Positions 3,542 through 50,860 of a stretch of 64,000 bases of DNA are shown here, in pieces. The position numbers and the translations under genes were made by a program. The number at the start of each line of letters is the position of its first letter. The stretch's first letter is position 1. Source of the stretch: Gammaproteobacteria bacterium (GTDB lineage Bacteria > Pseudomonadota > Gammaproteobacteria > JACQPQ01). The notes under the pieces are model-generated. The model had not been told where the DNA came from. It did no database searches and worked only from the letters and a program-made list of their open reading frames with translations. The stretch lies in NCBI GenBank assembly GCA_016207405.1, contig JACQPQ010000021.1, positions 4,936-68,935 on the forward strand. Direction: 5' to 3'.

Positions 3542-4132
<591 letters not shown>

Positions 4133-4320
4133 CGAATCAGCGGGAACTGCTGTCCGAAATTCAAAATGATTGTTATCTTTTTCAAAACATGATAAAACGT
4201 TTGAGTGTTTTTGGAAAAAGGTTAGAATCCAAAAACAGTGGCTAGCAGAAGGCAGCAAAAGGTATGTCGTAAAGCCTTGTTGCTAGTGGGTCTTTAGATT
4301 AAAAAATTAAGGGAGCAACA

Positions 4321-12656: not shown

Positions 12657-13385
12657 TTATAGGGCCTCTCGGAGATAAACAGGCAGTGCATGTTCTGGCT
12701 GAAGCGTTTCACCTTTTTCGAACTTCTGGATCGCCAAAGGTATTAAAGCTCTGGCCATAGGATAACAGTTGGGAAACGAGTGGTGCAAATAGGGGGCAAA
12801 TCGTGTTTCTAAAACACTTGAATAAGCTTTCCAACCACTTCCTACCCCAACCCATTCCGTTGCTTTAGATAAGAGATTTTCTGGGATAGAAATTTCAGAA
12901 GGTTTCTGTAGGGTATCCGGGATAATAGTTTTTAAAAGGGTAAGGGATAAGGGGTAAGGGGTAAGGGATAAGGGGTAATGATTGTTTTCTTCAATTTGGT
13001 AAGCGCCCCAATAAACAGCTCCCATGCGGGCATCTTGTACTCCTAGTACCGCTCCCTTCGAAAAAGTAAGATGCGCTTCTTCGGCAAGACAAGCCAAGCT
13101 TGAGACAGCCACAATAGGTAAGTCATGGGCAAAGGCAAGGCTTTGCGCGATGGAGGCCCCCAGGCGAACCCCTGTAAAAGTACCTGGCCCCTGACCAAAA
13201 ACAATCAGATCTAAATTTGAAAAAAAAATGTTGCTTTTGGAAAGCAAATTGTGGATCATACCGAGCACGTGAAGACTTGCTTTTTGAGTGCCCTCTTCTT
13301 GTTGCTCGAGTAAATGATTGTGTACAAGAAGCGCAACGGAGCAACGTTCTGTTGAGGTTTCTAGGGCGAGTATGGTGTAAGACAT
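12657..13385 (-). CDS. tsaB: tRNA threonylcarbamoyladenosine biosynthesis protein TsaB (YeaZ). It carries an in-frame heptamer-repeat insertion.
   Basis: It has the N-terminal MSYTILALETSTERCSVALL motif and a YeaZ fold. Residues YPLSLTPYPLSLT are encoded by (TTACCCC/TTATCCC)n at 12937..12979. Confidence 0.85.
   Translation of the reverse strand: MSYTILALETSTERCSVALLVHNHLLEQQEEGTQKASLHVLGMIHNLLSKSNIFFSNLDLIVFGQGPGTFTGVRLGASIAQSLAFAHDLPIVAVSSLACLAEEAHLTFSKGAVLGVQDARMGAVYWGAYQIEENNHYPLSLTPYPLSLTLLKTIIPDTLQKPSEISIPENLLSKATEWVGVGSGWKAYSSVLETRFAPYLHHSFPNCYPMARALIPLAIQKFEKGETLQPEHALPVYLREAL
12937..12979. repeat. (GGGTAAG/GGATAAG)x6 heptamer tandem array inside tsaB
   Basis: The sequence is aagggtaagggataaggggtaaggggtaagggataaggggtaa. 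It is 42 bp, which is a multiple of 3, and is in-frame. It is G4-capable on the plus strand. Confidence 0.75.
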
Positions 13386-13450: not shown

Positions 13451-14434
13451 ATGTCTCACCAAATGGTTGTAAGCGCATTGAACCAGGGAGAGTTTTTCAT
13501 TTATTCGCATCTACAACAATCGCTTGTAATCCCCATTATTTGGGGCGGGTTGTTGTGTGCCGTAAATATTCCTGCGCTCGCTTCAGACAACAGTCTTCTT
13601 CCCATGACAAACATGGCACGATGTACAAAGTGTCATGATGAAAACACCTCCCCCGTTTTACCTTTATTAAAATCTAAACATGCCGTAGTAGCGGACAAAA
13701 GAACTCCATTTGCAGGGGAAGCATGCCAGACCTGTCACGGGTTAAGTGAAGAACACATGAAAGGTTCTGAAGATGGAGGGCCGCGCCCTTCTCCCAGCGT
13801 TCGATTTGGTTCCAAGTCCAACACCCCTCTTTCAACTCAAAATGAATCCTGTTTAGCCTGCCACCGTTCTGGTTTGCGGATGGAATGGAAAGGCAGTCCA
13901 CATGAAATGAAAGGGGTGGGGTGCATTAGCTGTCATACCCTACACACCGGTTCGGATAAAGTTTTAGATAAAAAAAACCAAGCGGAAGTTTGTTTTACCT
14001 GTCACAAAACACAGAGGGCGGAGAGTCATAAGCTTTCGTCTCATCCCATTCAAGAAGGGAAAGTCGTCTGTTCCTCTTGCCATAATCCCCATGGTGCAGT
14101 AGGGCCAAAACTTTTGAGTACCAATACGGTTAATGAAACTTGTTATACCTGTCACGCGGAAAAACGAGGGCCGTTTTTGTGGGAACATGCTCCTGTGAGC
14201 GAAAACTGCATAACCTGTCATACACCTCATGGCTCTATTCATAAGCCGCTTTTGAAATCCAGGGGGCCGTGGTTGTGCCAGCAATGCCATTTGACATCTA
14301 ATCATCATACGAGTGGTGCCTATAACTGTTCTAGTTGTCACTCAACCCGGCGGCTATCGGGCAAAGATTGTTTAAATTGTCATTCAGAGGTGCATGGATC
14401 GAATCATCCTTCTGGTGCAAGGTTAATGAGGTGA
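13451..14434 (+). CDS. Periplasmic decaheme c-type cytochrome, MtrA/MtoA/PioA family
   Basis: There are 11 CXXCH motifs in 327 aa (CTKCH, CQTCH, CLACH, CISCH, CFTCH, CSSCH, CYTCH, CITCH, CQQCH, CSSCH, CLNCH). The size and heme density are typical of MtrA/MtoA. A large OM beta-barrel gene follows immediately. The signal peptide may start at an upstream non-ATG codon. Confidence 0.8.
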   Translation: MSHQMVVSALNQGEFFIYSHLQQSLVIPIIWGGLLCAVNIPALASDNSLLPMTNMARCTKCHDENTSPVLPLLKSKHAVVADKRTPFAGEACQTCHGLSEEHMKGSEDGGPRPSPSVRFGSKSNTPLSTQNESCLACHRSGLRMEWKGSPHEMKGVGCISCHTLHTGSDKVLDKKNQAEVCFTCHKTQRAESHKLSSHPIQEGKVVCSSCHNPHGAVGPKLLSTNTVNETCYTCHAEKRGPFLWEHAPVSENCITCHTPHGSIHKPLLKSRGPWLCQQCHLTSNHHTSGAYNCSSCHSTRRLSGKDCLNCHSEVHGSNHPSGARLMR

Positions 14435-14479
14435 AAGGGATAAGGTGAAAGGGATAAGGGGGAAGGGATAAGGGGTAAG
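14431..14479. repeat. Heptamer tandem array (GTGAAAG GGATAAG)x2 GGGGAAG GGATAAG GGGTAAG
   Basis: It is a seven-unit direct 7-mer array. The first unit supplies the TGA stop of the decaheme gene. Confidence 0.7.
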
Positions 14480-14485
14480 TTTTTG

Positions 14486-14526
14486 TAGGGTGGACAAAGT
14501 GAGCGCAGCGAACGGTCCACCTAAGC
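14486..14526. repeat. REP-like palindrome TAGGGTGGACAAAGTGAGCGCAGCGAACGGTCCACCtaagc
   Basis: GGTGGAC and GTCCACC arms enclose an inner palindromic core. It lies between the decaheme gene and the porin gene. Confidence 0.7.
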
Positions 14527-14581
14527 TTGCAGGTCGAATTCAAGCGAAGCGTAGAATCCGACAATTAAAACTCAAAAAGCA

Positions 14582-18498: not shown

Positions 18499-19002
18499 TC
18501 AGCCAGGACTATTTACCACGTGGTCGATGACAAGTTGAAGATCTCGACTCCCCACCTTAGCCGTTACAGGCTGACTTTCCAAGTCCCCCTTCTGAAGATG
18601 CGCATCTCCAGATTTTGAAATACGCGCAATAATAGTGGCTTTCGGAAACTGAGAAAGGGTTAGATCAGGCGTCATAGCCATGCTGTCATTTAAAACAAAT
18701 GACTTGGGTAAGTCTCGAACTTCCGCGCGAATAACCGCCAAAGGCAATTGTGGCCCGTCCACGGCTTTTGCAAAAATAAATACGAGATCGGTAGGGGAAG
18801 TTTGATTGGCTAAATCAGGGGTAAGCGAAACGGTTCCAGAAACGCTGGTCACGTCTCCCCCTGCTTCACCGCCCATAACGACTTCTGGTGAGATTTTTGT
18901 TTTTGCAAAATAAGAAAAATAAACAACACCGATGGCTATGAGAGCCACGCTCATTAAGAGGATGAGCTTTATGTTTGAGATCCCATAATAGGTTTGTCGC
19001 AT
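18499..19002 (-). CDS. Membrane-anchored hypothetical protein (one N-terminal TM helix)
   Basis: The product is 167 aa with an N-terminal TM (IKLILLMSVALIAIGVVYFSYFA) and a periplasmic-looking tail containing VRDLPKSFVLNDSMAM. I have only a weak recollection of similarity to the C-terminal region of cytochrome-c biogenesis CcmI. Confidence 0.4.
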   Translation of the reverse strand: MRQTYYGISNIKLILLMSVALIAIGVVYFSYFAKTKISPEVVMGGEAGGDVTSVSGTVSLTPDLANQTSPTDLVFIFAKAVDGPQLPLAVIRAEVRDLPKSFVLNDSMAMTPDLTLSQFPKATIIARISKSGDAHLQKGDLESQPVTAKVGSRDLQLVIDHVVNSPG

Positions 19003-20402
19003 AAAATTTTCTCCTTCTTGTTGTGGTTTCCTCTATATATGTTTTCCAAAGCTTTCAACATTGAGCTTACTTTATGAAAAGTCTCTTGATACTCTGCATC
19101 AAGTGTGGAGTCTACTACGATTCCACCTCCCGCCCAACAGTGAATACTGTTTTGACTGCATACCAAGGTGCGAATGGCAATATTCATATTCATTTTCCCG
19201 CTCGTGCTGATATATCCCAGTGAACCGGTGTACAGAGAACGCCGATGAGGCTCTAAGTTTTCAATAATTTCCATGGCACGAATTTTGGGCGCTCCGGTTA
19301 CCGATCCCCCCGGAAAACAATTTCGGAAGAGCTCCAGAGCGCCCTTGTCACTTGCAAGCTCACCGGTGACATGGCTTACCATATGATGAACATTCTTCAA
19401 TCGTTCTAGAGCAAACAGTTCTGGGACTCGGATGCTTCCAAATTTGCAGCTTTTGCCTAAGTCATTCCTAAGAAGATCAACGATCATGAGGTTTTCAGCC
19501 CGATCTTTTTCGCTGGTATATAGTTCTTCGTATAAACTATGATCTTGTTTAGGTTCGCTTGAACGAGGCCGCGTGCCTTTAATCGGAGAAGTTTTAACGT
19601 AAGGGGGTGTGACCTCTAAAAAACGTTCGGGGGAAAGGCAGAGAACACTCCCCCACGGTATTCTGAAAAAGGCAGAAAAAGCACCTGGGTTAATAGATCT
19701 TAAAGTTTTGTAAGCGAGCCAGGACTCACCCCTGTAAATCGAAGAAAATCGTTGAGCTAAATTTACTTGGTAGCAATCTCCTTCTTTTAAATGGTGGGCA
19801 ATGGTGTAAAAGGCGTGTTTGTAAAAATCATAAGTCATATTGGAGTAAAAAGGGGCATCTAGGGAGAAATGCGAAGATGGCCTGTAAATAGGGGCACCTA
19901 GCAGGCTTTTGAATGGCAGTTTTGTTGTGCCTAAAGAATGAGAGGCGCTGACACAGTAAGTACGTTGTTCGACATGATCGACAATAATCGCCCAGTCGTA
20001 AAAACCTACCGCCATTTCAGGCAGTAGGATATCTGCGGTGCTAAGGGTCGGTAGCACCTCTAACTGCCAAGCGAGATCATAAGCGAAATAGCCTAGCGCG
20101 CCTCCTTGAAAGGGTAAGAATGGATGAATGGATTGAGGGGGCGGCTGTTTTTCCAATTCCTCCTTAAGAACTAACCATGGAGACTGCCGGACTTGCTTTT
20201 TTAAATCTTTGGTTTCAATGAATACTTTATTCTTCCAAGCCGTTATGGTTTTAAAAGGATTAGCGGAGAGAATATCATAACGCCCTGCCGGAGTATTTAA
20301 ATACGGTTGGCAACTATCCAAAAAAATAGGCCATCGGTAAGGAAGTAGCTCTTCTGCGAGAAGGGTACTGTCTTCGTGGTAAGAAAGTTCGGTAAGGTGC
20401 AT
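18969..20402 (-). CDS. pabB: Aminodeoxychorismate synthase component I
   Basis: It aligns end-to-end with E. coli PabB (PFQGGALGYF.YDL, GDCYQVNLAQRF, FSAF.R, PERFL, PIKGT.PR, DRAENLMIVDL.RND, HHMVS.V.G.L, FPGGS.TGAPK.RAMEII.ELE, AGGGIV.DS..E.EYQET). Confidence 0.8.
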   Translation of the reverse strand: MHLTELSYHEDSTLLAEELLPYRWPIFLDSCQPYLNTPAGRYDILSANPFKTITAWKNKVFIETKDLKKQVRQSPWLVLKEELEKQPPPQSIHPFLPFQGGALGYFAYDLAWQLEVLPTLSTADILLPEMAVGFYDWAIIVDHVEQRTYCVSASHSLGTTKLPFKSLLGAPIYRPSSHFSLDAPFYSNMTYDFYKHAFYTIAHHLKEGDCYQVNLAQRFSSIYRGESWLAYKTLRSINPGAFSAFFRIPWGSVLCLSPERFLEVTPPYVKTSPIKGTRPRSSEPKQDHSLYEELYTSEKDRAENLMIVDLLRNDLGKSCKFGSIRVPELFALERLKNVHHMVSHVTGELASDKGALELFRNCFPGGSVTGAPKIRAMEIIENLEPHRRSLYTGSLGYISTSGKMNMNIAIRTLVCSQNSIHCWAGGGIVVDSTLDAEYQETFHKVSSMLKALENIYRGNHNKKEKILCDKPIMGSQT

Positions 20403-20477
20403 GGCTGTTCTAAAGGGTCAAATTAAACATAGTAAGGGCTGGCACGTTTTTGTGTAATCCCTCATTGATGGGGGGTA

Positions 20478-20661
20478 GTTTGCTGTGTATTTACCGCTGC
20501 CTGCTGCTCGCTAAAAGTCCCCTGCGCTCCTAGAATTTTTCCGGCCGCACACATTCGGCATCCTGCCTCATGTGTGCTAAAAATGCGTCCTGCATTTTTT
20601 CCGGAAAAATTCTACGTCGCTCGGGGACGCTCGCAAAGGCAGCGGTAAATACACAGCAAAC
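20478..20661. mobile_element. MITE-like non-coding element, copy A (184 bp), with perfect 24-bp terminal inverted repeats and a conserved structured core
   Basis: The termini GTTTGCTGTGTATTTACCGCTGCC and GGCAGCGGTAAATACACAGCAAAC are perfect reverse complements. The core (about 20502..20637) is about 88% identical to 37981..38116. It contains internal palindromes (GCACACAT...ATGTGTGC and TTTTTCCGGAAAAA). There is no ORF. Confidence 0.7.
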
Positions 20662-20691
20662 CACCCTCCCCACCAATTCTAGGCTAGGGGA

Positions 20692-21966
20692 TCAGGAGGT
20701 GGCTAGCTGTGCCTGTAAGAAGCGATGAAGATCAGAAAGCAGAATAAGCTGTGGCTGTTTTGTTTTGCGATGTCGATATTCAACGCTATTTTGTGCAAGC
20801 GTTTTTTCACTCACGACGAGGCGATGGGGAATGCCTATGAGGTCGCTCGTTGCAAGTAGCACGCCTGGACTCTCCGCACGGTCATCCAGAGCGACAGTCC
20901 ATCCGCTTTGAATCAAATCCGCATAAAGCTTTTCGGAAATTCCCTGTACCTCTCGTGAACGATGAAACCCAATCGGCACGATGATAACCTGAAAGGGCGC
21001 AAGAGCGTCCCCCCATATAATGCCAGCGGGATCATGATTTTGCTCGACGGCGGCTGCCACAATACGAGAAATACCAATGCCATAACACCCCATCGTCAGA
21101 ACAGGTGCCTCGCCTTTTTCATTTAAAACGGTTGCCTTTAGAGATTCGCTATACTTTGTGCCGAGTTGAAAGATGTGTCCTACTTCAATGCCTTTAGCAA
21201 TAGAAAGAATGCCTTCCCCATCAGGACTTCTCTCGCCTTCTTTTAAGTGACGAACTTCAGGACAATTGATGTTGCTTGCAAAATCGCTTTCTGTGGAATA
21301 AATAAGTGTGTCTTCTCCAGAGTTTGCTAAAACGTGAAACTCGTGGGATAAATTACCTCCCATAGTTCCCGAATCCGCTTTGACCATCCTAAATTGAAGG
21401 CCCAATCGTGTAAAAATAGTCTGGTAGGCCCCTCGCATAGCTTGGTAGGTGTTGGAAAGACATTCTTTGGTTAGATGAAATGAATAAGCATCTTTCATCA
21501 AGAATTCACGGGCGCGCATTACGCCAAAACGCGGTCGGATTTCATCTCGGAATTTTGTTTGAATTTGATAGAGTATGATGGGAAGCTGTTTATGACTTCG
21601 GAGCTCCCTTCTTGCAAGATCAGTAATGACTTCTTCGTGGGTAGGTCCCAAACAAAATTCGTGTTTGTTTCTGTCCTGAAACCGGAGCAATTCGGGACCA
21701 AATTTATCCCAGCGACCTGACTCTTTCCATAATTCGGCAGGTTGTACCGTAGGCATTAAGATCTCTTGCGCACCGATACGGTTCATTTCTTCCCGCACAC
21801 ACGCCTCAACGTTCCGTAGAACCCGTAAACCCAGTGGTAACCAGGTATAAAGCCCTGAAGCGAGCTTACGGACGAGGCCCGCACGCAACATGAGCTGATG
21901 GCTGATAAGCTCCGCATCCGAAGGTGTTTCTTTCAAATGAGCCAATAAAAAGTGAGAGCATCGCAT
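20692..21966 (-). CDS. proS: Proline--tRNA ligase (short form lacking the INS editing domain)
   Basis: The N-terminus [50 protein letters not shown] matches E. coli ProS. The length is 424 aa. Confidence 0.9.
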
Positions 21967-25061: not shown

Positions 25062-25385
25062 CTAGGCTCTAGAAACGTTTAGTCGAAATCCTAAAGCATT
25101 GACAATAGCTCCTAGGGTTTGCAATCGTGGGTTTCCATTGGCAGAAAGTGTTTTATAAAGTGCTTGCCGATTCATATGCACCTTCTCAGCAAGTGCCCCC
25201 ATACTCCCTTCCGCTTTTGCTATATGCCGTAATGCCAATAAAAAGGCTTCCATGTTATTGTCATCTTGAAAGGCTTCAAGGGAGGCTTCCAGGTAGTTTT
25301 CCGCTTCTCTTTTATTTTTCAAATCTTGAATAAGCGCATCTTCATAAAGTAGTGTCTTACACTTTAAGGCCATTTTTTTATTCAT
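25062..25385 (-). CDS. Addiction-module antidote protein (HigA-like XRE/HTH antitoxin, TIGR02684-like)
   Basis: The product (MNKKMALK...) has a C-terminal HTH (RQALYKTLSANGNPRLQTLGAIVNALGFRL). It lies immediately 3' of the killer-protein homolog with an 8-nt overlap. I chose the start at the MNKK ATG, which overlaps the toxin stop. Confidence 0.7.
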   Translation of the reverse strand: MNKKMALKCKTLLYEDALIQDLKNKREAENYLEASLEAFQDDNNMEAFLLALRHIAKAEGSMGALAEKVHMNRQALYKTLSANGNPRLQTLGAIVNALGFRLNVSRA

Positions 25386-25611
25386 GCCTGATTCCTTCTC
25401 CAAAATAAATTCGATACCCTGCTCCAAAAGCCAGCCTCAATTCATAGATCCCAGAGCTAATAGGCTTATAATCTCCATAATGGCCAACGGCCAATCTATC
25501 TAATCTTGCCCGAATTCTTGAACGGGTTTTGGGATCTTTTAAACCGCGCAACCATTCCAAAAACGGCTGCTTCCCAGAAATGGCGGTATAGATATGTAAT
25601 TCCCTTAACAT
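25378..25611 (-). CDS. Addiction-module killer protein homolog (HigB/RelE-like, TIGR02683-like), C-terminally truncated
   Basis: It reads MLRELHIYTAISGKQPFLEWLRGLKDP...GIYELRLAFGAGYRIYFGEG and then stops. Family members continue about 30 aa further (LLxGGDKxxQxxDI). Only 77 aa remain. Confidence 0.6.
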   Translation of the reverse strand: MLRELHIYTAISGKQPFLEWLRGLKDPKTRSRIRARLDRLAVGHYGDYKPISSGIYELRLAFGAGYRIYFGEGIRHE

Positions 25612-36355: not shown

Positions 36356-37462
36356 GTGAATACGACCGAAGAAATTATTGAGAGTCTCCGTCAGGGCCAA
36401 ATGGTCGTCATTATGGACGACGAAGACCGAGAAAATGAAGGTGATCTGGTTATGGCAGCGGCGAGGGTGATGCCCCGCGACATCAATTTTATGGCTCGCT
36501 ACGGCCGAGGGCTGATTTGTTTAACTTTGTGTAAAGAGCGTTGTCATCAATTGCGACTGCCCCTTATGGTACAGGATAACTTTTCACGGTTTGGTACGCG
36601 CTTTACGGTTTCAATTGACGCAAGCGATGGGATTGCCACGGGTATTTCAGCTGCTGACCGTGCAGCGACCATTCAAAAAGCCGTAGCCCCCCACGCAAAA
36701 CCAGAAGATTTTGTTCAACCCGGTCATGTCTTTCCCCTCATGGCAGAGCCTGGGGGCGTGCTCTATCGAGCAGGGCATACCGAAGCAGGCTGTGACTTGG
36801 CACACCTTTGCGGGTTTTTTCCTGCTGCGGTTATCGTCGAAATTTTAAATGAGGATGGAACGATGGCAAGGCGAGCCGATCTCGAACAGTTTGCAAACCA
36901 GCATGGGCTCAAAATAGGAACCATTTCGGATTTGATTCACTATCGCTTAACCCATGAAAAAACAATCGAGCGGGTGGTTGAAACAGACTGTGAAACCGAA
37001 TACGGCGTATTTCGCCTTTTATCGTATGTGGATACCCTGCATGGGCAAAGCCATATTGCTTTCACTTTGGGAAGTATAAATCCTGATGAGCCTGTCTTGG
37101 TTCGTGTCCATTTGGAAGACTCCCTTGAAGAAGTTTTGGGTGTTAAAAAAGAAGGCGTCCATTGGTCTTTATCTTCCGCCCTGCAGAAAATAAAGCACCA
37201 TGGGCAAGGGGTTGTCGTTATTTTGGGGAAAGATAAACCCCTCACTTCTTTTGTCGAACAACAGACCCTTTCTCGAAACAAAGCACGGTTGGATGAAACT
37301 TCTCTCAATACTTTAGACGTCCGGACGATTGGGGTAGGCTGTCAGATCCTTCATGACTTGGGGGTTCGAAAAATGAAAGTGATGAGTGCCCCCAAACGGT
37401 TCCCTGGGTTGGCGGGATTTCAATTAGAAGTGGTAGAATACGTCCCTTATGTCGCATATTGA
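36356..37462 (+). CDS. ribBA: RibB / GTP-cyclohydrolase-II-like fusion (RibBA). The C-terminal domain appears catalytically degenerate.
   Basis: The N-terminal DHBP synthase motifs are present ([21 protein letters not shown]). The C-terminal half aligns with RibA but lacks the Zn-ligand cysteines (no CxxC...CDC). Confidence 0.8.
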
Positions 37463-37913
37463 AGGGTATCTCAAACTTGCAGAGCCCGTACGTATTGCTA
37501 TTCTAGCCAGTCGTTGTAACCATTTTGTGGTAGATAGTTTAGTTGCAGGCGCTATGGATGCTCTCAAGCGGCATGGGTTATCCGAATCCGCAGTCGATCT
37601 GATTCATGTTCCAGGGGCTTTTGAATTACCTTTAGCAGCAGACGTTATTGCGGCGAATCGAAAGCACCAAGGGATTGTGGCCTTGGGTGCGATCGTCCGA
37701 GGGGAGACGCCGCATTTTGAATATCTTGCGGGGAGCTGTGTTCAAAGTCTTCAAGCGGTGTCTGTGAAACATGGAGTGCCGATTGGGTTGGGTGTTTTAA
37801 CGGTTAATACGGTTCCTCAGGCTATTGAACGTTCTGGCGCAAAGGCTGGAAACAAAGGGGCAGAAGCCGCTTTAGCTGTGATTGAAATGATAGATTTACT
37901 GAAGAAATTGTGA
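37449..37913 (+). CDS. ribH: 6,7-dimethyl-8-ribityllumazine synthase
   Basis: It contains RIAILASRCNHFVVDSLVAGAMDAL...VPGAFELP and has a length of 154 aa. Confidence 0.9.
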   Translation: MSHIEGYLKLAEPVRIAILASRCNHFVVDSLVAGAMDALKRHGLSESAVDLIHVPGAFELPLAADVIAANRKHQGIVALGAIVRGETPHFEYLAGSCVQSLQAVSVKHGVPIGLGVLTVNTVPQAIERSGAKAGNKGAEAALAVIEMIDLLKKL

Positions 37914-37953
37914 ACTGTTCTCAAGATGTTCCCAAACATTTCTAATATCTTGA

Positions 37954-38143
37954 GGTTCTTGGGAGAGTATTTTCTCCTCCAGTGCTCGCAAAAGTGTCCC
38001 TGCGCTCCTAGAATTTTTCAGGCCGCACACAGTCGGCATCTTGCCTCCAGTGCGCTAAAAATGCATCCTGCATTTTTGCCTGAAAAATTCTACGTCGCTC
38101 GGGACACGCGCGCACAGGAGGAGAAAATACTCTCCCAAGAACC
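37954..38143. mobile_element. MITE-like non-coding element, copy B (190 bp)
   Basis: The termini GGTTCTTGGGAGAGTATTTTCTCCTCC and GGAGGAGAAAATACTCTCCCAAGAACC are perfect 27-bp reverse complements, and they differ from the copy-A termini. The core (37981..38116) is about 88% identical to 20502..20637. The track ORF 37926..38183 merely reads through it. Confidence 0.7.
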
Positions 38144-38166
38144 TCTTCAGACTTTTAGACCACTCA

Positions 38167-39249
38167 ATGAACCGTCCTTTTAATTTTTCTGCAGGGCCTG
38201 CGATGTTGCCGGATGAAGTGCTTAAGACGGCACAAGAAGAACTGATCTCTTGGCAGGGGAAAGGCGTATCGGTTATGGAGGTAAGTCATAGAAGCGAAGC
38301 TTTTATGACGCTTGTCCAACAAACAGAGCAGGATCTAAGAGCACTTTTAAACATTCCAGAGCATTACAAAGTATTTTTTATGGCAGGAGGGGGATCGGGA
38401 CAGTTTGCAGCTGTGCCACTCAATCTTTTGGGCGTGAAAAAGCAAGCGGATTACCTTATCACAGGAACTTGGTCAGAAAAGGCTAGAAAACAAGCCGAAC
38501 TGTACTGCACGCCCAATATCGTTGCTCATGCAGAAGACACACAGTTTAAAGCGGTTCCGCCTGTTGCCACTTGGAAATTAAATCGAAATGCGGCTTATTT
38601 TCACTTTACTCCCAATGAGACTATTCATGGGTTAGAATACCACGAACTGCCTGTAACCGTAGAAACCCCCATCGTTGCGGACATGACCTCTAATCTTTTG
38701 TCAAGACCACTTGAGGTTTCTCATTATGGTGAGATCTATGCGGGAGTTCAGAAAAACATGGGGCCTGCTGGGCTTGCCGTTGTTATCGTGCGGGAAGATC
38801 TCGTCAATAACCCTTTGCCCATAACGCCTTTTATCTTAAATTATGGTTTACAGGCCAAGGAACATTCCCTACTCAATACACCGCCCACTTTTATACTCTA
38901 TATGGTGGCGCTCGTCTTAAAATGGGTGATTGGCCAAGGGGGGGTGTCCGCTATGGCTCTTCGTACTCGCCGTAAGTCGGAGAAGCTTTATCAGGCTATT
39001 GATCTCTCTCCCTTTTATAGGAATTCTGTCGAACCCGCTTATCGTTCGTGGACCAATATTCCGTTCACTCTGGTTAATCCGAAACTTGAAACGTTATTTT
39101 TGAACGAGGCAGAAGCGGAAGGGTTATTTGGATTAAAGGGACATCGTCTAGTTGGTGGGATAAGAGCGAGTCTGTATAATGCCATGCCTGAGAGTGGTGT
39201 TGACGCATTGATTCACTTTATGCGTGAATTTGAAAGAAAACGAGGTTAG
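38167..39249 (+). CDS. serC: Phosphoserine aminotransferase
   Basis: It has the N-terminus MNRPFNFSAGPAMLP, a PLP fold and a length of 360 aa. Confidence 0.9.
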   Translation: MNRPFNFSAGPAMLPDEVLKTAQEELISWQGKGVSVMEVSHRSEAFMTLVQQTEQDLRALLNIPEHYKVFFMAGGGSGQFAAVPLNLLGVKKQADYLITGTWSEKARKQAELYCTPNIVAHAEDTQFKAVPPVATWKLNRNAAYFHFTPNETIHGLEYHELPVTVETPIVADMTSNLLSRPLEVSHYGEIYAGVQKNMGPAGLAVVIVREDLVNNPLPITPFILNYGLQAKEHSLLNTPPTFILYMVALVLKWVIGQGGVSAMALRTRRKSEKLYQAIDLSPFYRNSVEPAYRSWTNIPFTLVNPKLETLFLNEAEAEGLFGLKGHRLVGGIRASLYNAMPESGVDALIHFMREFERKRG

Positions 39250-42688: not shown

Positions 42689-42701
42689 ACGCAGATCTGA
42701 G

Positions 42702-42732
42702 TAGGGTGGACAAAGCGAGCGGTCCACCAATT
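42702..42732. repeat. REP-like palindrome TAGGGTGGACAAAGCGAGCGGTCCACCAATT (minimal copy)
   Basis: It lies 13 bp after the clpX stop. This is the canonical form of the family. Confidence 0.7.
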
Positions 42733-44167: not shown

Positions 44168-44822
44168 ACTGTTTTAGCCATGGGATCAACTCTTTGATAG
44201 TATCAATACACCCCACTGGCGCAAAGGGTAACAGCTGTTCGCGACTGCGGGTCCCATAGCTCACGGCTAAAGCAGGGACTTTGGCGGAAGTTGCCATTTC
44301 AAGGTCGTATTCGGTATCTCCTATCATAAGTGCTTCTTCAGGGCCCACTCGCATTTCTTTGAGCAATTCGTAAAGCATGCGAGGGCTGGGTTTCGATTCC
44401 GTCTCATCGGCTGTTCGCGTGGAAATAAAAAAGGAAGATAAATTATGAATTTTTAGGGATTTTTCAAGTCCTTGGCGGTGTTTCCCGGTAGCGATGGCTA
44501 ACTGATATTCGCCTTGCAAAATTTTTAACACATCCAGCACACCCTCAAAAAGCGTTTCAGGGTGAATGACCGCTTCATCCCATGTTTTCCAATAGATTTC
44601 CCGATATTTTTGCATCAAAGTAGCTCGTTCATTGGGTGTCGCGCCAGGCGCGATCGCGTCAATCGATTCTACAAGACCCAATCCAATGACTTTTTTAATC
44701 GCGATGTCTTCTGGAATAGGCTGGTTTAATTCCGCTGCAGCCTGTTGAACACAGAAAACAATATGAGCGGTGGAATTAACGAGTGTGCCGTCCCAGTCGA
44801 AGATTAAAAGTTTTAATGGCAT
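44154..44822 (-). CDS. HAD-family phosphatase (phosphoglycolate phosphatase-like)
   Basis: It has HAD motif I (LLIFDWDGTLVNS) and motifs II/III (GD.EYD). The length is 222 aa. Confidence 0.65.
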   Translation of the reverse strand: MPLKLLIFDWDGTLVNSTAHIVFCVQQAAAELNQPIPEDIAIKKVIGLGLVESIDAIAPGATPNERATLMQKYREIYWKTWDEAVIHPETLFEGVLDVLKILQGEYQLAIATGKHRQGLEKSLKIHNLSSFFISTRTADETESKPSPRMLYELLKEMRVGPEEALMIGDTEYDLEMATSAKVPALAVSYGTRSREQLLPFAPVGCIDTIKELIPWLKQYDHS

Positions 44823-44825
44823 AAG

Positions 44826-44855
44826 GGGTTAGTGGTTAGTGATTAGTGGTTGGTG
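44826..44855. repeat. (GGTTAGT/GATTAGT)x4 heptamer array
   Basis: The sequence is gggttagtggttagtgattagtggttggtgg. On the minus strand this is (CCACTAA)n. It encodes the RluC C-terminus (TPPTTNH) and stop and ends 4 bp before the next gene's ATG. Confidence 0.65.
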
Positions 44856-47577: not shown

Positions 47578-47598
47578 TCACTTCTCCCTTACCCCTCA

Positions 47599-47634
47599 CC
47601 CCTCTCCCGCTGGTGCGGGAGAGGGGTGTTTTTT
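47599..47634. terminator. GC-rich hairpin / putative bidirectional terminator (CCCCTCTCCCGC-tggt-GCGGGAGAGGGG followed by tgtttttt)
   Basis: It is a perfect 12-bp stem immediately 3' of coq7. A T-run lies on the plus side and an A-run on the minus side. The stem sequence is related to the 18452 hairpin. Confidence 0.55.
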
Positions 47635-48220: not shown

Positions 48221-48253
48221 TCCCCAGCCCTTCCCCCTTATTCCTTACCCCTT
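48221..48253. repeat. Degenerate heptamer array (the reverse complement reads AAGGGGT AAGGAAT AAGGGGG AAGGGCT)
   Basis: It lies in the spacer between rpsI and coq7. Confidence 0.55.
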
Positions 48254-50614: not shown

Positions 50615-50860
50615 TACTTTTGTCTCTGTTATACTCTGAAACCTAAGCAAGCCCCAGCAAATACTTATGACTTTTTACTTGTTCTTTGTTCCATTTTCTG
50701 CGTTGCAAAAAGAGTTACATAGTCAAACTATGCGCCTCTTTTTGCGCCTTGAAAATGGAACAAATTACGGCGTAAAAAGTTACAAGTATTTACTGAGGCT
50801 TGCTTAAATCCCAAAACTTAGAATAAAACTATTGTACAGAAATTTATAGGGAAACTCTTT

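Follow-up and report, generated by a model that had tools for sequence, protein, structure and literature searches.

The spacer between pabB and proS contains a long palindrome (copy A), and the question that it raises is what kind of sequence this is: a mobile repeat, a structured RNA gene or something else. It was originally predicted, from the DNA alone, to be either a MITE-like element or a structured small RNA gene, built of a core of about 135 bp that is closed by a perfect 24-bp stem and that recurs as a second copy (copy B) in the same window, meaning the whole 64-kb stretch of DNA analysed here. The coordinates of both copies, of their parts and of the flanking genes are given in Table 1.

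Table 1. Positions in the window of copies A and B, their component parts and the genes on either side of them.
Feature	Position	Strand	Basis and remarks
pabB	18969..20402	-	TIGR00553 pabB, 344.8 bits, above cut-off; start (20402) 67 nt from left arm of copy A
Copy A, whole hairpin-forming element, 200 bp	20470..20669		Inverted repeat of 33 nt at 94%; fold of rod and three-way junction
Copy A left outer arm, copy-specific, 24 nt perfect from 20478	20470..20502		Inverted-repeat and BLAST comparison
Copy A conserved core, common to copy B	20505..20639		117/134 identical
Left invariant 22-nt block CCCTGCGCTCCTAGAATTTTTC	20520..20541		100% identical in A and B; includes the 8-nt TGCGCTCC, unpaired with the right block
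Tip hairpin 1, GCACACAT..ATGTGTGC	20547..20577		Inverted-repeat search and fold
Tip hairpin 2, AAAAATGC-GTCCT-GCATTTTT	20579..20599		Fold; B differs from A in the loop only
Right invariant 22-nt block GAAAAATTCTACGTCGCTCGGG	20604..20625		100% identical in A and B
Copy A right outer arm	20637..20669		Inverted-repeat comparison
proS	20692..21966	-	NCBIfam proline--tRNA ligase, E 7e-194; stop (20692) 22 nt from right arm of copy A
ribH, lumazine synthase	37449..37913	+	PF00885, E 3.5e-49; stop 38 nt before copy B
Copy B, whole hairpin-forming element, 194 bp	37952..38145	same orientation as A on + strand	Inverted repeat of 38 nt at 95%
Copy B left outer arm, copy-specific, 29 nt perfect	37952..37980		Independent Logan contig (L087) agrees
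Copy B conserved core	37983..38116		Alignment with copy A
Copy B right outer arm	38116..38145		Inverted-repeat and BLAST comparison
serC-like aminotransferase	38167..39249	+	PF00266, E 8e-41; start 21 nt after copy B

Copy A is closed by two perfect reverse complements of 24 nt, GTTTGCTGTGTATTTACCGCTGCC (20478-20501) and GGCAGCGGTAAATACACAGCAAAC (20638-20661); when two mismatches are allowed the inverted repeat reaches its full 33 nt, and complementarity then comes to an abrupt outer limit at 20469/20670. Inside the core, the sequences TAGAATTTTTCCGG and CCGGAAAAATTCTA form a palindrome of 14 nt that is 100% complementary, and a second one forms a hairpin at the tip. The original picture of perfectly complementary termini around a core with palindromes of its own is therefore borne out, as are the site in the pabB-proS spacer (by profile matches of the flanking genes) and the lack of coding capacity, since no ORF with a start and a stop is common to both copies.

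The recurrence of the core, originally put at about 88% identity, also stands. Ungapped comparison of 20505-20625 with 37983-38103 (121 nt) gives 88% identity and BLAST gives 91.5% over 106 nt, so that overall estimates lie at about 87-91%. Each of two 22-mers of the core occurs exactly twice in the window, against an expectation of zero from 100 shuffles. Copy B has a closing stem as well, which was absent from the original prediction and was found in the present analysis: an inverted repeat of 38 nt (37952-37989 / 38108-38145; 95%, with 29 nt perfect) whose sequence is largely unlike that of the A arms. Perfect inverted-repeat seeds of 20 nt within 400 nt of each other are found, in the 64 kb, at A and B only. 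The two palindromes are not artefacts of a single assembly, because independent Logan assemblies reproduce the arm sequence; contigs from two separate sequencing runs contain the outer flanks and 22-26 nt of both A arms, together with the left arm of B and 29 nt of the B core. A 14-nt exact match to the inner palindrome arm (AGAATTTTTCCGGA; BLAST E 0.04) is found at 59939-59952, inside an 812-aa ORF (58083-60521), and is probably due to chance.

Both copies adopt a common fold, a rod of ~80 bp tipped by a three-way junction. It begins with an outer stem of ~30 bp, continues with a short helix (P2) between two internal loops (GTCCCC/GGGGAC in A, GTGTCCC/GGGACAC in B) and then with a helix of 14-15 bp (P3, formed by the inner palindrome), and ends in a tight three-way junction with two small hairpins. 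Relative to copy A, the first of these hairpins has in copy B one pair that is compensated, one that is broken and one that is A·C.

Conservation along this rod is uneven. The two copies are 100% identical in a pair of 22-nt blocks, 85% identical in the tip with its two hairpins, 67-77% identical in the region around P2 beside the blocks, 62-77% identical in the proximal outer arms and 47-53% identical in the distal outer arms; the outer arms as a whole (left 47-62%, right 47-77%) share about 58% of their positions. The left outer arm of A, 53-62% identical to the B arm, has no second occurrence in the 64-kb window by BLAST. The invariant blocks form an imperfect inverted repeat in which 14 matching bp are preceded by an 8-nt mismatch (the 8-nt segment of the left block against GAGCGACG, the reverse complement of the right), and this asymmetry is identical in A and B. 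In all, the core contains an 8-nt block and a ~10-nt block of non-complementarity that are unchanged in both copies. The blocks look like inherited left and right ends or paired protein-binding sites, and they are the best candidate for whatever a mobilising or binding protein would recognise.

We hold with moderate confidence that A and B are diverged copies of one new family of non-coding palindromic repeats, most likely non-autonomous and MITE-like, which has the 22-nt blocks as its recognition sites and whose copies lie at the apex of local palindromes. This reading is favoured because the two copies lie in unrelated spacers with sharp limits of homology, do not code for protein and carry inherited inner inverted repeats that are imperfect; the proS/pabB and ribH/serC spacers share no flanking homology, and the likeness ends sharply with the element. 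The element is probably small, palindromic, "selfish" and mobile. Its inherited unit would be the core of ~135 bp, carrying the two invariant 22-nt blocks in inverted orientation as imperfect left and right ends; these would bracket a tip of ~60 bp with two small hairpins, and are probably bound by the protein that moves or uses the element. Each copy sits exactly at the apex of a long, essentially perfect inverted repeat (29-33 bp) of largely locus-specific sequence. Such arms could have arisen in two ways: either the unit inserts into the middle of palindromes that were already there, in the way that several insertion sequences target REPs (PMC1525189), or template switching by the polymerase at the hairpin lengthened the palindrome into its flanks.

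How closely does this resemble a classical MITE? Both copies are small (194-200 bp) and non-coding, and their inner 22-nt blocks form an imperfect inverted repeat that is fully conserved, while the outermost arms of the two copies are 47-77% alike. The 24-bp termini of the original description differ in sequence between A and B and so are not conserved ends of the element, nor terminal inverted repeats of the classical kind. The outer arms of A are flanked by no direct repeat and those of B by TT at most; the GCTCGCAAAG-like repeats beside P2 are not site-specific duplications either, because they are nearly identical in the two copies. The classical MITE signature is thus incomplete, lacking a target-site duplication and conserved outer arms.

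Among well-described repeats, the Correia (CREE/NEMIS) and ERIC MITEs are similar in being non-coding, intergenic and nearly palindromic, 100-200 bp long and equipped with a conserved core; they too are co-transcribed with their neighbours, so that their RNA forms a long hairpin. Correia elements have conserved terminal inverted repeats of 26 bp, a TA duplication and hundreds of copies. The present elements differ from them in that the outermost arms are not alike between copies, no duplication is seen and two copies are known. REP sequences and REPINs, extragenic palindromic DNA mobilised by RAYT transposases (PMC3116915, PMC3337134), likewise form hairpins, are symmetric at the DNA level and persist between housekeeping genes. 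A REPIN, however, consists of two inverted conserved REPs around a variable spacer, whereas A and B have a conserved centre and variable ends. Comparison with the REP consensus of the window (GTAGGGTGGAC...GTCCACC) gave p values of 0.045-0.84, with no consistent match in A and B and no significant relationship, and no gene for a RAYT (Y1 transposase) was found in the window.

The identity of the outer arms bears on a different account, which we judge unlikely on balance but deserving of weight: that the inherited unit is the whole ~200-bp hairpin with its outer arms. The arms of the two copies would then be homologous and fast-evolving, nothing would have been inserted into a pre-existing palindrome, and the complementarity within each copy would stem from re-copying of one arm from the other (intrastrand template switching, quasi-palindrome correction) or from selection for a DNA or RNA hairpin. 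The arms, when placed in register with the core, are in fact alike at 17-18 of ~30 positions, which is above chance (p 0.006 by shuffling, 0.001 against random 29-mers of the window), and the motif GTATTTWC...GWAAATAC is common to both at an equal distance from the core. Identity decays gradually outward with no drop at a single point. Nine pairs of the outer stem are altered on both sides and none is broken, and P2 shows a symmetric, indel-type change in both of its arms. Template switching, which is documented to homogenise and lengthen the arms of inverted repeats (PMC8604942, PMC13100816, PMC7202029), would explain both the perfect locus-specific arms and these symmetric changes; it is a process rather than an element family, and the mismatches retained in the core indicate that it is not active throughout the hairpin. 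Indeed, the persistence of the 8-nt and ~10-nt non-complementary blocks in both copies means that arm-to-arm correction is not pervasive, unless selection protects the loops. An inherited unit of this length would also need strong purifying selection on a supposedly selfish core to account for ~87% identity in the core against ~58% in the outer arms, and the likeness of the arms comes from two sequences only, with a modest p value. That likeness is explained equally well by a single 200-bp unit whose arms co-evolve and by insertion into a family of targets; empty palindromes of the outer-arm type (GTATTT..AAATAC) were not found in the window, which counts against the favoured reading.

It is doubtful that A and B are non-coding modules of a site-specific recombinase system, either RNA-guided (IS110/IS1111-type) or targeting the loops of palindromes (IS3-type), which would be moved alone into palindromic targets. 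The model for such a module is ssr9, with its A'-B' organisation, which is moved alone into REPs by the transposase of ISPpu9, an IS110-family element (PMC12288879); REPs are the targets of several insertion sequences (PMC1525189). Like ssr9, the element is a short non-coding unit with conserved end boxes between the halves of a palindrome, and these halves vary from site to site and yet are related near the junction; the absence of a classical target-site duplication also agrees with such a system. Unlike the ssr9 case, no cognate insertion sequence and no conserved flanking dinucleotide were found in the window: none of the 33 window ORFs scanned encodes a transposase, RAYT or recombinase of the IS110 family or any other, and no dinucleotide is consistently present at both junctions (AG is at both in B and not in A). 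The core here is nearly palindromic, a property not described for ssr9. Moreover, the outer arms bear no relation to the window's REP-like family and, at 29-33 bp, exceed typical REP stems. In a broader form the idea is that of a structure-dependent class of mobile DNA, each copy of which combines a conserved core with a unique perfect stem, and which either has the apices of long palindromes or hairpins as its specific targets or makes an inverted flanking duplication of ~30 bp on integration; we think it quite unlikely that A and B represent such a class, whose members might be recombinase-less mini-modules of an RNA-guided (IS110-like) or single-strand-DNA-dependent system.

The other half of the original prediction, a structured small RNA gene, belongs with the wider suggestion that the element is a functional RNA, whether a small-RNA gene or a cis-acting structured element (for instance a site of processing or stabilisation, or a leader of pabB and serC that resembles a riboswitch). 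The fold is indeed very stable and conserved. Folding energies are between -122 and -139 kcal/mol with z-scores of about -15 to -17 on either strand (-122 kcal/mol and z -15.7 for the plus strand of copy A, -139 kcal/mol and z -17.1 for its minus strand; z -14.9 and -15.8 for copy B, which has the same architecture), and 12 pairs have been altered on both sides between A and B, nine of them in the outer stem. The minus strand folds better in both copies, by ~10 kcal/mol.

Transcription would also reach both copies. Copy A lies between two minus-strand genes and copy B between two plus-strand genes, 17.5 kb away on the single contig, and since the elements are co-oriented on the plus strand, A is antisense and B sense to its neighbours and read-through RNA contains opposite strands of the element at the two loci. 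No promoter-like site was found on the plus strand between B and serC, and serC starts so soon after B that it has no room for a promoter of its own; its mRNA most likely reads through B, and transcription of proS enters A, so that the mRNAs should carry a nearly perfect duplex of ~80 bp at either locus. The hairpin of Correia elements is bound by RNase III, which cleaves or protects it (PMC2649163). By analogy, the duplex may serve as an RNase III substrate or as a stabiliser or barrier for 3' ends, uncoupling the neighbouring cistrons.

A functional RNA is nevertheless improbable. The pairing is of a kind that favours neither strand: copy A has 80 Watson-Crick pairs and 1-2 G·U pairs, and copy B 81 Watson-Crick and 0-1 G·U, whichever strand is read (~81 pairs in each). 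Several wobble pairs are expected in diverged RNA helices of this size that have evolved by compensatory mutation, and seven of the nine double changes in the outer stem are of the transversion type, which is impossible by way of a G·U intermediate. Perfect duplexes of 24-29 bp would be substrates of RNase III and not the bodies of stable small RNAs. A covariance-model search for related structured RNAs, one of the checks originally proposed, was run with Rfam and matched no family to the element: at the gathering threshold the window yielded three tRNAs only, and a scan of 20400-20740 at E<=10 returned a single spurious match of 9.8 bits outside the element. Neither a promoter nor a terminator is common to A and B (the only promoter-like sites are on the minus strand of copy A and have no conserved counterpart in B; terminators with a T-run are absent). 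A shared leader or riboswitch function for pabB and serC is impossible and was rejected, because the element has opposite orientations relative to the two genes. Also rejected were a hammerhead or twister-like three-way junction (nearly every nucleotide of the junction is paired, and Rfam has no match) and a toxin-antitoxin type I peptide, for want of a conserved ORF. With Watson-Crick pairing on both strands, opposite orientations to the genes, no conserved promoter, terminator or ORF and no Rfam match, the sequence itself indicates that A and B are DNA-level palindromes and not a strand-specific RNA gene; of the two original readings, it is the non-coding, palindromic, MITE-like repeat that is retained.

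It is highly improbable that A and B have neither mobility nor function and are a chance palindrome or what remains of a segmental duplication. There are only two copies, 17.5 kb apart on one contig and absent from other collections searched, but their homology is limited to the element and ends symmetrically inside the hairpin between unrelated flanking genes, a perfect closing stem of its own has been gained or retained by each, and chance is excluded by the fold z-scores and the zero expectation for the 22-mers.

Searches for further members of the repeat family were extended well beyond the window. A 20-mer of the core had no match in 185,579 species genomes, a 21-mer none in the JGI metagenomes, and two core patterns none in IMG/VR; blastn in its distant mode gave no match in plasmids and phages. 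A protein query made by joining the six-frame translations of A and B, which would detect ORFs miscalled on other copies, found nothing real. In blastn searches with the core and arms, the 1.49 Mb of fetched loci yielded same-organism Logan contigs only, and these apart, A and B have no sequence similarity to anything in the collections searched. The relaxed pattern CTAGAATTTTTC-N50-70-GAAAAATTCTAC matched one AT-rich metagenome sequence (L082) that has no interior homology and was rejected as a chance match. The known copies thus number two within 64 kb, with none in the public collections searched.

The host genes were followed as well. The nearest ProS relatives are at most 75% identical and have other genes around them. 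Look-ups of the exact proS, pabB and ribH proteins recovered short Logan contigs of the same organism only, and serC was not on record; no empty-site allele was present among the contigs recovered in this way. Those with proS and pabB end inside the outer arms of A (L001 at its end and L088 at its start, both 22-26 nt into the arms), and the one with ribH (L087) ends just past the left arm of B, in the core at the start of the first invariant block. The stops look like a drop in coverage at hairpin DNA or strain heterogeneity and not like simple repeat collapse, because k=31 exceeds the length of the perfect repeats (24-29 nt).

Such elements break short-read assemblies; the Logan contigs stop inside the arms or just beyond them. 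A and B most likely add a new family to the palindromic intergenic repeats of bacteria, from an uncultured gammaproteobacterial lineage that lacks near relatives among sequenced genomes (nearest ProS 75% identical); the kind of element is already known. What is unusual is the pairing of a conserved core with a perfect closing stem that differs from locus to locus, a pattern that is based on n = 2. Were it to hold in many copies, it would point to targeting of hairpin apices or to growth of palindromes by template switching, either of which would bear on the origin and persistence of palindromes in bacterial genomes. At the RNA level, duplexes of ~80 bp inserted in operon mRNAs (proS-pabB, ribH-serC) may affect mRNA processing.

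The genome is rich in intergenic repeats, as the remainder of the window shows. A third long palindrome (element C, 50644-50806) has 35-nt arms (89% complementary), inner stems, a rod of ~70 bp and a DNA fold with z -11. It is located between divergent yicC-like and rph genes, is single-copy in the window and is unrelated in sequence to A and B; similarity between its arms and theirs is not significant. Its presence in the same 64 kb indicates that the genome carries long-palindrome elements. Members of a genuine REP-like family with a 5' GTAG and a loop that varies, GTAG-GGTGGAC-(AAAGYGAGCG...)-GTCCACC, occur at 3588-3632, 14485-14522 and 42701-42729, and are adjoined at 14530 and 42670 by a second palindromic motif (GTCGGATTCAAGCG...). 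Intergenic tandem arrays of a 7-nt unit (AAGGGGT / AAGGGAT and complement) are found at 777-801, 4087-4145, 12920-12992, 14420-14492, 32627-32679, 44808-44852, 47580-47604 and 48229-48253, some of them directly adjoining REP-like elements.

The ProS next to copy A (MBI4356664.1) has only 424 aa and matches the 559-aa bacterial model in two stretches, indicating that the inserted editing domain is missing; its closest relatives are mostly 565-580 aa long and have PF04073. Three tandem 34-nt repeats (TTAAAYKGACTATATATAAGTATTCTACTAATAT; 28607-28708) lie upstream of, and overlap the start of, a gene for an HTH (Cro/C1-type) protein (28705-29181), which is followed downstream by a Fic/Doc gene (29381-29710). 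Other toxin-antitoxin or abortive-infection modules found among the housekeeping genes are AbiEi/AbiEii (34765-36340), a HigA-like antidote (25062-25427) and a second Fic/Doc (56944-57471).
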